Positions 23,490 to 27,908 of a DNA stretch of 64,000 nt are shown in pieces. This DNA is from Patescibacteria group bacterium (lineage in GTDB: Bacteria; Patescibacteriota; Microgenomatia; UBA8517): assembly GCA_022868165.1 (NCBI GenBank), contig JALHYA010000017.1, positions 11,634 to 75,633 on the forward strand, given 5' to 3'. The translations under genes were made by a program, and so were the position numbers. The number at the start of each line of letters is the position of its first letter. The stretch's first letter is position 1. The notes under the pieces are model-generated. The model saw nothing but the letters and a program-made list of their open reading frames with translations. It was not told where the DNA came from and searched no databases.

Positions 23490-23828
23490 CTAGTGGATTT
23501 TGGACCCGGGCGCAATTTCGTCAATTGGAGCCAAAAGAATACACTCTTCGCCGTCATCGGTTTCTGCGGCCATTATCATCCCCTGCGACTCTTCTTCCAT
23601 CATCTTTTTGGGCTCTAAGTTGAAAACAAAAGCAAAAATTTTCCCTTTTAAATCTTTGGGCGTGTACCACTTTTTGATTCCGGAGAGAATTGTCCTTTTT
23701 CCTTCTTCGCCGAAGTCGACGGCAAGCCGCATTAAGGTTTCGGCGCCCTCAATGTTTTCGGCCTTGAGAACCTTCCCTACCCTGAAATCTATCTTTGAGA
23801 AGTCTTCAAAAGTAATTGTATCGCTCAT
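23490..23828 (-). CDS. tRNA-binding domain protein (CsaA/Trbp111-like)
   Basis: FRVGKVLKAENIEGA OB-fold tRNA-binding signature. Confidence 0.7.
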   Translation of the reverse strand: MSDTITFEDFSKIDFRVGKVLKAENIEGAETLMRLAVDFGEEGKRTILSGIKKWYTPKDLKGKIFAFVFNLEPKKMMEEESQGMIMAAETDDGEECILLAPIDEIAPGSKIH

Positions 23829-24829
23829 ATCAAACCCATTGACTTTTTGACCTCATCCAAAGTCCCTCGCGCAACAGCCCTGGCCCTTTTTGCCCCGTCT
23901 TCGAGCACTCTTTCTACATAAGAAGGGTCTTTTTCAAGAACTGCCCGCCTTTTTTGAATAGGCTCAATTTCCTTATAAATTGCCTGGGCAAGCTTTTCTT
24001 TGAGCTCGGAATATCTAATTCCCTCGCCAAGATACATCTTTTCGTATTTTTCTCTCTCCGCCCCTCCTTCAAAAAGCTCAACAAGTTCCAATAGCGTCGC
24101 CACGCCACCTTTTTCGGGCACTTTCTCCCCACGTCCGGAATCTGTCGGAGTTTTGGCCAGCTTCTCTTTGATGGCTTCCAGGCTGTCGGTTAGGTAAATC
24201 GAGCTTCCCTCAACTGTTTTGGCCATCTTCCCCTCTCCTGTTAATGACGGCACATACTCGCCCTCGGTTACGAATCTTGTCGGTTCCGGAAAGGATAGTC
24301 CATACTTCTCATTCATTTTTCTGGCAATTTCTCTGGTTATCTCAAGATGCGGTTCTTGGTCTATTCCGGTCGGCACAAGCGGAGCTTTATAAGCCAAAAT
24401 GTCGGCCGCCATAAGGATTGGATAGTTGAGAAGGCCAACATTTACGTTCTGGGGGTACTGTTTAACCTTCTCTTTGTAAGTGGGAAGGTGCTGCATGCGG
24501 GCTATTGACACGGCTGTTGAGAAAAGATAGGCCAACTCAACATGCTCGGGAACGTAAGATTGGATAAAAATCGTCGATTTTTCGGGGTCAAGGCCCGCGG
24601 AAAGATAGTCCATTACAACCTCCCTGGTGTTATTTTTGAGCTCCCTGGGGCTATAAGGCGTGGTAAGGGTGTGTAAATCGGCAACCATATAGAAAGTTTC
24701 ATAATCCGGATTATCTTGTAGGACCAGCATGCCCTTGACCGCCCCCAGATAATTACCCAGGTGTAGCCTTCCTGTAGCCCTAATGCCCGATAAAACTCGC
24801 TTTTTGGCCATATATACGGATTCTACCAT
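23825..24829 (-). CDS. trpS: tryptophan--tRNA ligase
   Basis: HLGNYLGA (HIGH-region variant) and KMAKT (KMSKS variant). About 330 aa class I aaRS. Confidence 0.85.
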   Translation of the reverse strand: MVESVYMAKKRVLSGIRATGRLHLGNYLGAVKGMLVLQDNPDYETFYMVADLHTLTTPYSPRELKNNTREVVMDYLSAGLDPEKSTIFIQSYVPEHVELAYLFSTAVSIARMQHLPTYKEKVKQYPQNVNVGLLNYPILMAADILAYKAPLVPTGIDQEPHLEITREIARKMNEKYGLSFPEPTRFVTEGEYVPSLTGEGKMAKTVEGSSIYLTDSLEAIKEKLAKTPTDSGRGEKVPEKGGVATLLELVELFEGGAEREKYEKMYLGEGIRYSELKEKLAQAIYKEIEPIQKRRAVLEKDPSYVERVLEDGAKRARAVARGTLDEVKKSMGLI

Positions 24830-24918
24830 TATTGAGGCTAAAGAGGAAATTTACTAGTGGCTACGAGAGGATTCGCCGTGCAAAACTTAACCTTGAGAAG
24901 CACTATCGAAACCTCGAG

Positions 24919-25156
24919 TGGCTACGAGAGGATTCGAACCTCTGATCTTGCGCTTATAAGCGTAGCTTGCAAACCCTTCGGGTTTATAAGCGAAGCTTGT
25001 GTCGCGAAATATTGGTGCCAGCGACAGGACTCGAACCTGTGACGGCTCGCTTATGAAACGAGTGCTCTACCGCTGAGCTACGCTGGCATATTTCGCGTCA
25101 TGAAATCCCGCTCTTAGGCGATAGCCGCACCTCTTGGTGCACTGAGCTACGTAGCC
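24919..25156 (-). other. interrupted/split tRNA gene (host of nested tRNA-Met)
   Basis: 5' part GGCTACG-TA-GCTC-AGT at 25156 downward. 3' part AGAGG-TTCGAAT-CCTCT-CGTAGCC-A ending at 24919. Acceptor strands are perfectly complementary (7/7). The about 190 nt between them contains a complete tRNA-Met. Confidence 0.45.
25013..25087 (-). tRNA. tRNA-Met (anticodon CAT), elongator-like, CCA encoded
   Basis: GCCAGCG-TA-GCTC-AGCGGTA-GAGC; anticodon stem CTCGT/GCGAG with loop TTCATAA; T-arm ACAGG-TTCGAGT-CCTGT; CCA. Flanked by a 12-bp inverted repeat GTCGCGAAATAT/ATATTTCGCGTC. Confidence 0.85.
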
Positions 25157-25262
25157 GCGTCAATGCTTAGCTCGCCTAATTCAATTCTGTCCCTTTCGGG
25201 ACACGAATCTTTACCGCTCGCTAGCCTTTCCTTTCAAAATTGCTAGGCAATTTTGGTGTTTA

Positions 25263-25283
25263 CAAAATCGCAATGCGATTTTG
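25263..25283. repeat. perfect 10-bp inverted repeat CAAAATCGCA-a-TGCGATTTTG
   Basis: Read directly in the tRNA-locus intergenic region. Confidence 0.5.
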
Positions 25284-25358
25284 AGAGGAGGAGCCGACTT
25301 GAAATAGCTAAGTCCCGACTAAATCGGGACGAAGCGCAAAAGTCGAGCTCCGACGATG

Positions 25359-25428
25359 TTGCGGGGCTAGGAGTTGAACCTAGCCTGGAAGATTATGAGC
25401 CTTCCGTGCAGCCGTACACTACCCCGCA
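25359..25428 (-). tRNA. tRNA-Met (anticodon CAT), initiator-like (TGCGGGG...CCCCGCA acceptor, loop CTCATAA), no CCA encoded
   Basis: Acceptor TGCGGGG/CCCCGCA, D-stem GTGT/GCAC, anticodon stem GAAGG/TCTTC with loop CTCATAA, T-arm CTAGG-TTCAACT-CCTAG. Confidence 0.7.
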
Positions 25429-25454
25429 CGTAGATGAACGGGCTCTATTATACC

Positions 25455-25817
25455 TCAAAGGAACAGTTTCAGCCACTTTCTCCAGGTTGGGTCAGGCAGT
25501 TTTTCTTCCTCTTCCGGTAGCCTCGGAGCCAACTCTTCTAGGATTTTTGTTTCCGGCAAAACTATCACTATTTCGCCCTTTTTAGCCAGCCCCAACTTAT
25601 CCCGTAGCTGTTTTTCAATATATTCCTCGCTCTGGGCTTCTTTAAGTCTAGCTTCCAAGTCGCTATTTTCTCCCTGAAGCTTAGTAATATTTTCCTTTAT
25701 CTTATCTGTCCCCCTTTTTGCTTCAAGTCCTTTGAATACATTTCTAACCAAGGAAATACTCAAAAGCACTGCAAGTCCTAAAAGTAATAAATTCGTATAT
25801 TTTGCTAACTTTTGCAT
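25455..25817 (-). CDS. septum formation initiator FtsB/DivIC-like (single TM + coiled coil)
   Basis: N-terminal TM, LQGENSDLEARLKEAQSEEYIEKQ coiled coil, 120 aa. Confidence 0.55.
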   Translation of the reverse strand: MQKLAKYTNLLLLGLAVLLSISLVRNVFKGLEAKRGTDKIKENITKLQGENSDLEARLKEAQSEEYIEKQLRDKLGLAKKGEIVIVLPETKILEELAPRLPEEEEKLPDPTWRKWLKLFL

Positions 25818-25948
25818 TGTAGCTTATAAGCACAGCTTGTGAGACTTTACTTTAAAAAGTAAACGTCTCATAATATGCGTTGACTCAGCAGAAATATGTG
25901 CTAGAATATAGGTCCTGCGAAAATTTCTGCTCCTAAGTTTATCTGATT

Positions 25949-26815
25949 ATGGCACAAGATACTCTAAAAAACCTGCTACCCAAGTTTGTCGAAAGCTTGA
26001 AAACCAAAGGTCGCTCCCCGTCGACCGTTCTCGCCTATCGGGCAGACCTTGAACAGCTTGTACAGTTTCTATTAAGCAAGAATAAGCCCCTTTCGGACCA
26101 GGTTAGACCCAGCGATTTGGAGGGCTTCCGTGACACCCTTTTGGCCGAAAAATACACTCCCAAAAGCGTATCCCGCAAGCTAAACGCCGTCAAAACTTTC
26201 TTTAGATGGCTGATTGCCGAGAATATTCTTACATCCGATCCTTCGGCTTCCGTAGCCCATCCCAAGATAGAAAGTTCTCTTCCCAAGTTTCTTTCCCAGC
26301 TGGAATATAGGGCTCTTCGTGATGTCGTCCGCGGGGATGTCAGAATAGCCGCTATTGTGGAGCTTATCTTGCAAACCGGAATGAGAATTTCCGAGGTTGC
26401 AAACCTTAAAATCGAAAATGTCAAAGAGAATGAAGCAAAAATTGAGGCTTACGCTACCCAGCCCGAGCGCACCGTTCCTCTAAACAAGCCGGCCAAAGAC
26501 GCTCTAAATGCTTATTTGGCAATCAGACCCGACAAAAACGGCTCGCCGTATGTGTTTGTAAGCAAAACCGGTCATCCGTTGGCAGTAAGAAATATAAGGG
26601 CCGCAATAGACAGATATATGCAAAAGGCAGAAGTTCCCGCCTATTCGGTTAATGATTTGAGAACTACTTTTATAGTCGAAAATCTTAAGGCCGGAGTTGA
26701 TTTGGTTCTTCTTTCCCAAGTAACGGGCCACAAAAGACTTTCGACAACCGAGCGTTATTTGGAGTTAGCCCAAGTCACCGAGCCCGGCAAGCGCCAAATC
26801 CTTCAGGAGCTTTAA
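25949..26815 (+). CDS. tyrosine site-specific recombinase, XerC/XerD-like
   Basis: N-terminal SAM-like core-binding domain (TVLAYRADLEQLVQFL). Catalytic R (RISEVANL), H-x-x-R and nucleophile Y in GHKRLSTTERYLEL. Confidence 0.8.
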   Translation: MAQDTLKNLLPKFVESLKTKGRSPSTVLAYRADLEQLVQFLLSKNKPLSDQVRPSDLEGFRDTLLAEKYTPKSVSRKLNAVKTFFRWLIAENILTSDPSASVAHPKIESSLPKFLSQLEYRALRDVVRGDVRIAAIVELILQTGMRISEVANLKIENVKENEAKIEAYATQPERTVPLNKPAKDALNAYLAIRPDKNGSPYVFVSKTGHPLAVRNIRAAIDRYMQKAEVPAYSVNDLRTTFIVENLKAGVDLVLLSQVTGHKRLSTTERYLELAQVTEPGKRQILQEL

Positions 26816-26820
26816 AAGTT

Positions 26821-27019
26821 TGGTGGAGCCGCTTGGGACCGAACCAAGTACCTGTTGTTTATGATAGAGCTTCACTCTGACATGTCAGCAAAACCTCTGT
26901 GGAACGGGATGGGATCGAACCATCGACCTCATGTTTATAAGACATGTGCTCTAACCACTGAGCTACCGTTCCATTATTGCTGTCATAAGACAACCGCTCT
27001 ACCAATGAGCTACGGCTCC
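26821..27019 (-). other. interrupted/split tRNA gene (host of nested tRNA-Ile UAU); reconstructed anticodon CAU or UAU
   Basis: 5' half GGAGCCG-TA-GCTC-ATTGGTA-GAGC-G-GTTGT-CTTATGA (27019 down to about 26983). 3' half TCATAA-ACAAC-AGGTA-CTTGG-TTCGGTC-CCAAG-CGGCTCC-A-CCA (about 26858 to 26821). Acceptor 7/7 and anticodon stem 5/5 complementary. Canonical D-arm and T-arm. Interrupted in the anticodon loop by about 137 nt. Confidence 0.55.
26900..26972 (-). tRNA. tRNA-Ile (anticodon TAT, reads AUA)
   Basis: GGAACGG-TA-GCTC-AGTGGTTA-GAGC-A-CATGT-CTTATAA-ACATG-AGGTC-GATGG-TTCGATC-CCATC-CCGTTCC-A. All stems Watson-Crick. Confidence 0.8.
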
Positions 27020-27056
27020 ATCGAGGCTATATTATATCAGAAAGAGGCTATTGAAG

Positions 27057-27908
27057 TTACTTTTTCTTCTTTTTATGATTCACGGCTCCTTCAATCTCCT
27101 CCCAATCTCTTACTTTTCGAATCTTCAGATTCTTTTCCCACATGGCTTTTAAGGCGGACATATCCACACCCATATTTTTGGCAAAACCCAAAAGCGCGAC
27201 TGTATCCTTGGGAAAACATTTGCCACCAAAACCCCGAATTGTTGTAACACTAAGGTGGCTCAACCCAATTCTGGGGTCAGCGGCAACCAGTTCCTTTACC
27301 TCGTCATATTTAATACCAAGGGCGGTACACAAGTCGTACATTTCATTCGCAAAAATGACCTTAGAAGCCAAAAGGGCATTGCTCATATATTTAACCATCT
27401 CTGCCGTGGTTGTATCCGTAATAAAAATTTTTGCTTTTGGTCCCAATAGGTCCCTATAAAGAGCAACCAATCTTTCCGAAACAGACTGGGAAAGGGCCCC
27501 TATTATTGTTCTGTCTGGGTGTAAAAAATCCCAAGGGCCATTGGCTTCAGTTAAAAATTCGGGGTTCATCGCAAAAAGCGTTTCCGGATACTTCTTTTTG
27601 AACGATACCGTTGTTCCGGGAACCACGGTGGATTTTATTGTGAGAATTTTATCTGTTTTCACTATTTTGGGTGCGATTCTATCAACAACCTCTTTGATCA
27701 CCGATAAATCGATCCCGCTGTTGTCGGAAAACATTGGAGTAGGAACACAAACAAATATAAATTCCGACTCGGATATTACTTTTTGAAGCGAAGCAGGACC
27801 TTTTTTATACTTATCCCACCAGAAAATTTCGTTTTCTTTGTTTCTAGCAAAACCTTCTCCGACGGCTTTCCCTACTATCCCCCAGCCGATAATTCCGATT
27901 TTAGCCAT
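27057..27908 (-). CDS. nucleotide-sugar (UDP-glucose/GDP-mannose) dehydrogenase family protein, short form lacking the C-terminal domain
   Basis: N-terminal IGIIGWGIVGKAV Rossmann motif and catalytic-Cys motif GFGGKCFPKD. Only 283 aa. Confidence 0.7.
   Translation of the reverse strand: MAKIGIIGWGIVGKAVGEGFARNKENEIFWWDKYKKGPASLQKVISESEFIFVCVPTPMFSDNSGIDLSVIKEVVDRIAPKIVKTDKILTIKSTVVPGTTVSFKKKYPETLFAMNPEFLTEANGPWDFLHPDRTIIGALSQSVSERLVALYRDLLGPKAKIFITDTTTAEMVKYMSNALLASKVIFANEMYDLCTALGIKYDEVKELVAADPRIGLSHLSVTTIRGFGGKCFPKDTVALLGFAKNMGVDMSALKAMWEKNLKIRKVRDWEEIEGAVNHKKKKK

Follow-up and report, generated by a model that had tools for sequence, protein, structure and literature searches.

In a 64,000-nucleotide (nt) stretch of contig JALHYA010000017.1 from a Patescibacteria group bacterium of the Microgenomates (hereafter the window), a gene for tRNA-Met(CAU) is broken in its anticodon loop, and the DNA that breaks it contains a second, complete tRNA-Met gene. 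We consider it probable that a small, non-autonomous element, built of two hairpins and devoid of any open reading frame (ORF), split the resident gene in the anticodon loop while supplying a replacement tRNA with the same anticodon. This explanation is built on direct observations, namely the architecture of the locus, the exact insertion point, the two-hairpin anatomy of the insert, the existence of filled and empty alleles, the recurrence and nesting of such inserts, and the decay of the outer gene halves at the Met locus. To our knowledge, group I introns are the only sequences that interrupt bacterial tRNA genes, which otherwise serve large integrative elements as attachment sites. A tRNA-carrying insertion element of the Microgenomates is apparently undescribed: the literature searched, whose coverage is incomplete so that an earlier description elsewhere is possible, held no account of nested tRNA genes or of such an element.

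Related loci are coded with an L and a number; the window and 143 such loci form the survey set (1.12 Mb, both strands). The interrupted tRNA-Met locus lies on the minus strand and comprises the following parts, in which P1 and P2 are the two helices of the insert.

25100-25156, minus strand: 5′ half of the outer tRNA-Met(CAU), with acceptor strand GGCTACG, D stem, damaged anticodon stem and the loop TTCAT ending with T36 at 25100
25114-25140, minus strand: 27-nt insertion/replacement in the D loop of the outer 5′ half, predicted to fold into two mini-hairpins, replacing GGCA of the L062 allele
25088-25099, minus strand: 5′ strand of P1, GACGCGAAATAT, starting right after T36
25013-25087, minus strand: nested complete tRNA-Met(CAU) with encoded CCA (ARAGORN; Rfam tRNA, 69.3 bits; calls span 25013/25016-25087)
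25001-25012, minus strand: 3′ strand of P1, ATATTTCGCGAC, pairing with 25099-25088 and leaving an A.A mismatch at helix position 2
24986-25000, minus strand: P2 hairpin ACAAGC-ttc-GCTTAT, the right end of the tRNA-bearing insert, ending TTAT
24956-24985, minus strand: second, tRNA-less hairpin pair, AAACCC-gaa-GGGTTT + GCAAGC-tac-GCTTAT, a tandem mini-element with the right end duplicated (direct repeat)
24919-24955, minus strand: outer tRNA-Met 3′ half, AA-GCGCA-AGATC-AGAGG-TTCGAAT-CCTCT-CGTAGCC-A (weak Rfam tRNA hit at 24919-24967)
24856-24936, minus strand: exact 20-nt direct repeat CGAATCCTCTCGTAGCCACT at 24917-24936 and 24856-24875 (only two occurrences; no match of any kind in 100 shuffles)

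An earlier reading of the window from its letters alone (the original prediction) had recognized a tRNA gene interrupted by a complete tRNA-Met; ARAGORN and Rfam likewise call the complete tRNA-Met, and the features that it named are in place. As it proposed, the acceptor strands of the segments at 25156 and 24919 are complementary at 7/7 positions, and the 20-nt repeat of the tRNA 3′ end is present twice, 61 nt apart. The 5′ segment GGCTACGTAGCTCAGT does begin at 25156, but it runs on past 25141: after the 27-nt insertion it continues as GAGC-G-GGAT-TTCAT to its end at 25100 in the anticodon loop. The inverted repeat, described as 12 bp long, directly abuts the nested tRNA and is part of the insert, but pairs at only 11/12 positions, with the one A.A mismatch; taken as 25000-25012 and 25088-25100, it is 13 nt long and 92% complementary. 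The 41 nt between the copies of the 20-nt repeat (24876-24916) start with T-arm-like GAGGTTTCGA, and the region 24856-24936 is an extra tRNA 3′ (T-arm/acceptor) fragment with a T-loop insertion, a relic of the same ancestral tRNA and no end of the nested insert. A remnant of this fragment, AATCCTCTC, is found in the short allele L054.

The break in the outer tRNA-Met falls in the anticodon loop, at CAT/AA (the slash marking the insertion point), between T36 and A37, a placement that follows from related loci, whose 5′ exons stop at ...TTCAT and whose 3′ exons start with AA-. The outer gene of the window is a decayed relic, with its 27-nt D-loop insertion and a broken anticodon stem; against the undamaged version of the same 5′ half in L062, GGCTACGTAGCTCAGTGGCAGAGCGGGCGTTTCAT, the stem is down one base (GGGCGT to GGGAT). 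Because the outer gene is damaged, the right end duplicated and an extra 3′ fragment present, we infer that this copy is old. The nested gene at 25013-25087 is probably the functional elongator tRNA-Met of the locus. P1 carries compensatory G>A / C>T changes in L062, L097, and L126, and the right end of L079 nearly matches the P2 of the window copy (ACAAGCTCTGCTTAT).

Two other readings of this region were dropped. The CTTATAA motifs at ~24990 and ~24960 had been considered as anticodon loops of tRNA-Ile(UAU), with the 3′ half as an Ile fragment, until comparison with L079, L097, and L110; they consist of the P2 end (GCTTAT) followed by A37 and A38 of the Met exon. At low thresholds, ARAGORN fits a "tRNA-Asp(atc)" with a 145-nt intron to the outer gene, a false call that the damage to the D arm and the anticodon stem brings about.

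The tRNA-Ile insert and its empty site

A second insert, 1.7 kb from the tRNA-Met locus in the same window, interrupts a gene for tRNA-Ile(UAU), which ARAGORN in intron mode reports as tRNA-Ile c[26821,27019] with a 124-nt intron at position 36.

26985-27019, minus strand: 5′ half of the outer tRNA-Ile(UAU), ending CTTAT
26861-26984, minus strand: 124-nt insert with nested tRNA-Ile(UAU) at 26972-26899; P1 GACAGCAA / TTGCTGAC, then P2 ATGTCAGAG-tgaag-CTCTATCAT
26821-26860, minus strand: 3′ half of the outer tRNA-Ile with CCA, the same as the uninterrupted L054/L057 gene except for A58>G in the T loop

The tRNA-Ile gene is uninterrupted in L054 and L057. Across ~9 kb the window and L054 are 92-95% identical, and in the tRNA-Ile region the 124-nt insert is the only indel, with 40 nt on each side identical apart from A58>G. 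The redundancy at the insert ends amounts to the dinucleotide AT only. The tRNA-Ile insert is a discrete DNA unit that was gained or precisely lost, and the empty and filled alleles demonstrate that the element is mobile at the DNA level. As the outer gene is one base off the empty allele, we infer that this copy is young and pristine.

Apart from its anatomy, the stretch formed by the P1 end and P2 of the Ile insert (26861-26888, minus strand) matches 10/12 positions of the sigma-70 consensus (CTGACA-16-TATCAT), directed toward the outer 3′ half; the conserved P1/P2 boundary TTGAC/A forms a -35-like hexamer in several copies.

Anatomy and recurrence of the inserts

The anatomy of the inserts was compiled by script in a pair table of 12 copies, to which the following counts refer. 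Inserts measure 115-150 nt, contain no ORF and have a non-tRNA part of ~40-75 nt. P1 (GACGC…GCGAC in the tRNA-Met copy of the window) starts at the first inserted base with an R-Y pair, followed by a purine-purine mismatch at position 2 (12/12 copies), a C-G pair at position 3 (also 12/12) and then 3-8 variable pairs. Its loop is the entire cargo tRNA, and P1 thus lengthens the acceptor stem of the cargo; in tRNA-less copies this loop is reduced to 3-4 nt or to small extra hairpins. P2 adjoins P1 without a spacer and begins with an A-T pair (12/12), a T-A pair, and an A-T or G-C pair (covarying 7:5), with a T.T or T.C mismatch at position 4 in 10 of the 12 copies and, beyond it, a helix unrelated in sequence between copies. 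The last base of the insert is T throughout (12/12, as YAT or CCT). Both helices are flush with the insertion junctions, their inner positions vary on both strands with pairing kept, and P1 and P2 are mirror versions of one motif (A.A versus T.T mismatch). The boundary between them is often a double-stranded DNA palindrome centered on AT, such as CTGACATGTCAG in the window (26888-26877) and TTTGACATGTCAAA in L106.

Every copy sits in the target YAT/AA, co-oriented with the host tRNA and with a terminal redundancy of ≤2 nt, and the anticodon of the cargo is always that of the target. A strict scan of the 1.12 Mb on both strands, for P1 followed immediately by P2, returned 8 sites, all of them co-oriented in Met or Ile anticodon loops and none elsewhere, against 0-2 in shuffles. 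When the hairpin criteria were relaxed to look for copies outside tRNAs, the scan did not discriminate (50 hits versus 43-52 in shuffles), and two junction-pattern scans of viral contigs gave chance matches only, without tRNA context. Copies lacking a tRNA were seen only beside tRNA-bearing copies in already split genes (L126, L079, L006, and 24985-24956 of the window), which is the expectation if a cargo-free insert is lethal; the tandem mini-elements of L126 and L079 are analogous to that of the window.

The two-part anatomy recurs in the independent assemblies L053, L062, L079, L097, L110, L126, L106, L007/L098, and L006/L093, of which L053, an independent Logan assembly, is identical to the window at the locus. 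There are at least 10 further copies in other Microgenomates, always in Met or Ile anticodon loops, some of them doubly nested or tRNA-less, and the same design extends to more distant Microgenomates whose tryptophanyl-tRNA synthetase (TrpRS) genes show 62-76% nucleotide identity. The outer halves are wholly intact in L097 and L110, a tRNA-bearing insert is followed by a tRNA-less one in L126, and in L079 an insert lies within the cargo tRNA of another insert; L007/L098 and L119 hold variants of the nested design. One tRNA type (GCCAAGA...) is the cargo in L110 and the split host in L097. A 25-nt P2 hairpin, ATGTCAGGTTCG(A/C)AGAATCTGTCAT, is identical or 1 nt off in L007/L098 (at the Ile locus), L127, and L126 (in the mini-element at the Met locus), and its presence in hosts with TrpRS genes only 70-74% identical suggests recent horizontal spread. 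The loop of this hairpin resembles a T loop.

Turnover at the Met locus is also visible among close relatives. An exact-protein look-up with the DivIC of the window retrieved sister-strain contigs with flanks 96-100% identical and a wholly different tRNA-Met locus. Six contigs of the L054 type carry a different, single tRNA-Met without outer halves, while the nested locus of L062 consists of an undamaged 5′ half, then GACGCAAAATTAT, a different complete tRNA-Met, and then ATAAATTTTGCGAC; L062 and the L054-type contigs are 100% identical for 1006 nt, after which the allele is completely different. Across public metagenomes, three or four unrelated alleles of the second tRNA-Met gene stand behind 96-100% identical DivIC and initiator tRNA genes (L053/window, L054-L058, L061, L062, and L059). 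This housekeeping tRNA gene is hypervariable at the strain level. The suggestion that the site had been struck repeatedly by integrative elements stands in so far as there are two right ends, an extra 3′ fragment and these three or four alleles behind near-identical flanks, but the inserts have no integrase. Relatives with a single intact tRNA and no nested gene, the sign by which the original prediction would have known a decayed pseudogene, do exist (L002, L004, L011, and L054); other relatives, however, share the nested design, and the feature is therefore a recurrent element and not merely a one-off decayed pseudogene.

Between the two tRNA-Met genes, several loci carry a small gene for a GIY-YIG (UPF0213-like) nuclease (L059 at ~1700-1856, L040 at ~2035-2160, L045, and L020/L135/L136), a candidate stimulator of recombination at this hot spot; the upstream flank of L059 is 99.6% identical to that of the L054-type strains.

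The state of the outer genes was assessed by joining their halves in silico and submitting the product to ARAGORN. First-shell halves give a normal tRNA for the Ile copy of the window, L097, L110, L106, and the middle shell of L079; for L062, L126, and the Met copy of the window, ARAGORN recognizes no tRNA, and for the latter copy the proposed tRNA-in-tRNA arrangement of intron-like character is thereby not upheld. A chimera of the L062 5′ half and the window 3′ half is a normal tRNA-Met in ARAGORN, which identifies them as the two parts of one ancestral gene. In L079 and L097, only fragments are left of the outermost shells. There is hence a gradient, with the innermost tRNA always intact, the first shell intact in about half of the cases and the outer shells decayed, as expected if each insertion inactivates and replaces the host gene.

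Proposed mechanism and rival explanations

In the mechanism that we propose, the resident elongator tRNA-Met(CAU) gene would have been split between T36 and A37 by an element of ~115-150 nt with a complete foreign tRNA. This cargo would be co-transcribed from the promoter of the resident gene (the outer genes are immediately preceded by a TATAAT box), excised by RNase P and RNase Z, and would take over from the destroyed gene, the outer gene being dead after insertion and its halves free to decay. With the same anticodon loop, the cargo would itself become the next target, which would explain both the double nesting and the tandem tRNA-less copies. The element is envisaged to move as DNA, by a hairpin-dependent mechanism. 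If so, an essential tRNA gene would be broken exactly at the anticodon by a very small element without ORFs that also delivers the substitute, and the cell would come to depend on an incoming copy that is the next target. This would be a tangible way in which bacteria of the candidate phyla radiation, with their reduced genomes, could have core tRNA genes replaced horizontally; it would explain odd fragments and "missing" or duplicated tRNAs reported by standard tRNA finders in such genomes, demonstrate strain-level turnover at a housekeeping locus, and illustrate from nature, in bacteria, the origin of split or intron-containing tRNA genes, a long-standing question of tRNA evolution.

Several points weigh against this explanation. 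None of the copies is linked to a transposase, recombinase, or homing endonuclease, and tblastn with an IS200 TnpA query found no TnpA in the 1.12 Mb of flanking sequence. Helices that are flush with the junctions and conserved in pairing alone are also the expected look of an intron acting at the RNA level. About half of the first-shell outer genes are perfect tRNAs once joined, which fits recent insertion and equally retained function, and the single A58>G change is too little to prove relaxed selection (neutral expectation ~2-3 changes, observed 1). The hairpins are flush with the junctions here, whereas the cleavage sites of IS608 lie 10-19 nt from its hairpins. Finally, every sequence used is a metagenomic assembly. 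Among the best 25 of the 87 Pfam families matched by the 67 ORFs of the window there is likewise no transposase or homing endonuclease.

A new type of bacterial tRNA intron, which we regard as unlikely, would have the whole unit transcribed, the nested tRNA freed and the outer exons joined, either by an endonuclease and a ligase such as RtcB or by an unrecognized ribozyme, with P1 and P2 aligning the splice sites and both tRNAs functional. With the two helices flush with the junctions and abutting, T36 and A37 would indeed come side by side in the RNA, and the helix sequences are free to differ yet remain paired, with two mismatches at fixed positions, four base pairs apart; both junctions, however, lie at helix ends, and inspection reveals no bulge-helix-bulge (BHB) motif. 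The outer halves of the Ile copy of the window, L097, L110, and L106 join into canonical tRNAs, whereas outer genes decay with nesting depth and the Met copy yields no tRNA even when joined. If RNase P and RNase Z released the nested tRNA, they would cut the outer transcript as well, and the confinement of tRNA-less mini-elements to already split genes, beside tRNA-bearing ones, also speaks against splicing. Although Patescibacteria are unusually rich in tRNA introns (PMC13011429), the inserts match no Rfam ribozyme or intron family in the same search that detects group I introns in neighboring initiator tRNAs. Somewhat less likely again would be a new class of intervening sequence, neither group I nor BHB, in which the outer pre-tRNA would serve as a promoter and processing scaffold, intact exons would be rejoined by a novel pathway, and the sequence would home horizontally into cognate anticodon loops among Microgenomates. 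Should intact copies prove to be spliced, they would be the first case of non-group-I tRNA splicing in Bacteria.

That the fragments are attachment (att) scars, produced as larger elements with an integrase repeatedly integrated into tRNA genes and were excised or deleted, seems to us improbable. The possible enzyme would be the tyrosine recombinase encoded at 25949-26815, between the nested loci and 6 nt from the 3′ end of tRNA-Ile, with a VirD4-like coupling protein nearby; but this gene lies outside the inserts and is syntenic in relatives with and without them, and its synteny in insert-free relatives rules it out as part of the element. The exact 20-nt direct repeat of the tRNA 3′ end, which the original prediction had likened to attL/attR, is a separate downstream feature, and the nested inserts have no flanking tRNA 3′ duplications and a redundancy of ≤2 nt. 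While the AT-centered P1/P2 palindrome could be a recombinase core site, an anatomy of ~120 nt that recurs in many genomes is not what random deletion of large elements would give, and classical integration restores the tRNA by an element-borne 3′ half, with no whole tRNA inside a helix. We attach next to no weight to a coincidental resemblance, to random remains of pseudogenes or to a chimeric assembly, none of which would imply a shared mechanism. Motifs of tRNAs are frequent, and taken by itself GGCTACGTAGCTCAGT does not stand out statistically (matched within 3 mismatches in 12/100 shuffles), but the recurrence of the inserts and the empty-site comparison refute such a reading: the window agrees here with L053, >10 independent contigs, drawn from different projects, obey the same rules, shuffles give fewer sites than the strict scan, and the filled and empty alleles differ by exactly 124 nt.

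Among known systems, only group I introns have been described for Patescibacteria tRNAs in the literature searched (PMC13011429). Group I introns in tRNA anticodon loops of Patescibacteria and cyanobacteria (PMC13011429) resemble the inserts in phylum, in loop position (~35-37), in being ORF-less, and in their patchy presence; the inserts, in contrast, end in T and not in a terminal G (omega-G), have a non-tRNA part of ~40-75 nt versus >~200 nt, and carry a whole tRNA. The group I model (Intron_gpI, RF00028) has no match in 24300-27300 of the window at E≤10 or in the inserts of eight related loci at E≤0.5, a meaningful negative because the same kind of search finds introns in the initiator-like tRNA-Met at 51-71 bits (L079 2222-2435, L110 2374-2607 on the minus strand, and L005 1336-1601 on the minus strand). 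The same tRNA cluster thus hosts two unrelated kinds of intervening sequence. Neither by eye nor with Rfam at E≤10 did we find a hammerhead (CUGAUGA...GAAA), other small ribozymes, or a BHB motif. An archaeal or eukaryal BHB intron has two 3-nt bulges on opposite strands, with a 4-bp helix between them and a splice site in each bulge; on inspection, all copies have 1x1 mismatches only and no 3-nt bulges, and their junctions lie at the blunt bases of P1 and P2. Neither EndA nor an RNA ligase is among the best 25 of the 87 Pfam families matched by the 67 ORFs of the 64-kb window.

The closest conceptual parallel is found in Caldiarchaeum, where an archaeal tRNA-Thr gene is disrupted by a 1.8-kb element with a recombinase gene (PMC3293823). 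As in that model, a leftover 5′ fragment accompanies a new functional copy, and the locus is heterogeneous at the population level (PMC3293823); here, the host is bacterial, the insert has ~120 nt and no recombinase gene, and the new gene is nested inside the broken one rather than beside it. The helix formed by the sequences flanking the break also recalls the leader/trailer helix of archaeal split tRNAs. Integrative elements that target tRNAs with a tyrosine integrase share tRNA hot spots, a crossover region in the anticodon stem-loop, leftover fragments and a recombinase gene close by. They differ in the flanking tRNA duplication (typically 15-50 bp) and internal integrase that are absent here, in rebuilding the tRNA from an element-borne 3′ half, and in a size 100 times that of the present element. 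A miniature transposable element with terminal inverted repeats, of the IS630/Tc1 type, was rejected, as TA duplication is incompatible with the empty site CTTAT/AAAC and the strict scan found no scattered copies in the 1.12 Mb.

For the favored two-hairpin element, the nearest mechanistic analogy would be with IS200/IS605-derived hairpin elements (PATEs, REP/REPIN-type), which are mobilized by Y1 HUH transposases. Both are non-autonomous, with imperfect end hairpins that contain a fixed mismatch, both insert 3′ of a short target in one orientation and without a real target duplication, and in both the right end resembles the target; here, however, P1 and P2 are mirror images and not like-oriented copies. 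We know of no IS200/IS605-type element with tRNA cargo inside a terminal hairpin. On this analogy, hairpin-directed and orientation-specific insertion 3′ of a short target, with no target duplication, may resemble single-strand transposition of the IS200/IS605 type, a suggestion that we make tentatively and hold to be possible rather than probable.

Locus setting and side observations

On the minus strand, the order of genes around both inserts is VirD4-like protein, UDP-glucose dehydrogenase-like gene, tRNA-Ile(UAU), Xer-like tyrosine recombinase (encoded on the plus strand), DivIC, initiator-like tRNA-Met, second tRNA-Met, TrpRS, tRNA-binding protein, and FtsH. The closest matches to the TrpRS gene (23825-24829, minus strand), ~70% identical, belong to metagenome-assembled genomes of Woesebacteria, Blackburnbacteria, and Microgenomates. 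Most relatives have two tRNA-Met genes separated by 0-5 nt directly upstream of TrpRS, with no further tRNA fragments in that tRNA-Met/TrpRS region. The neighboring features of the window are as follows.

25358-25428, minus strand: initiator-like tRNA-Met(CAU), first gene of the tRNA operon (ARAGORN/Rfam), conserved in relatives and with a TATAAT box upstream
25157-25357, minus strand: strongly structured spacer of 201 nt that separates the initiator-like tRNA from the outer 5′ half (z-score -7.4; alignment with a covarying inner hairpin)
25949-26815, plus strand: Xer-like tyrosine recombinase gene between both nested tRNA loci (Pfam Phage_integrase and SAM-like domains)

The first ~100 nt of the spacer are conserved in L054 (4403-4511) and L079 (2481-2580); the spacer is absent from L062, L002, L004, and L011 and has no Rfam match. 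Its long-range stem GGAGCxCGACU/AGUCGGCUCC is conserved, and the sequence of the inner hairpin is swapped yet still paired in relatives. The spacer may be another kind of insertion or a small RNA.

A different insert of ~100 nt occupies the T-loop region of outer tRNA 3′ halves in L005 (~2590-2720) and L127 (~130-240), with an identical 34-nt stretch, GGTTTCAGCCAAAGGCTGACCCTTCTGAAATCGC, in the Met locus and the Ile locus of unrelated genomes; shorter hairpin insertions in the T loop occur in L079, L088, and 24876-24916 of the window. Elsewhere in the window, the 67 scanned ORFs include a eukaryotic-type topoisomerase IB domain protein and an ATP-dependent DNA ligase amid otherwise housekeeping genes.

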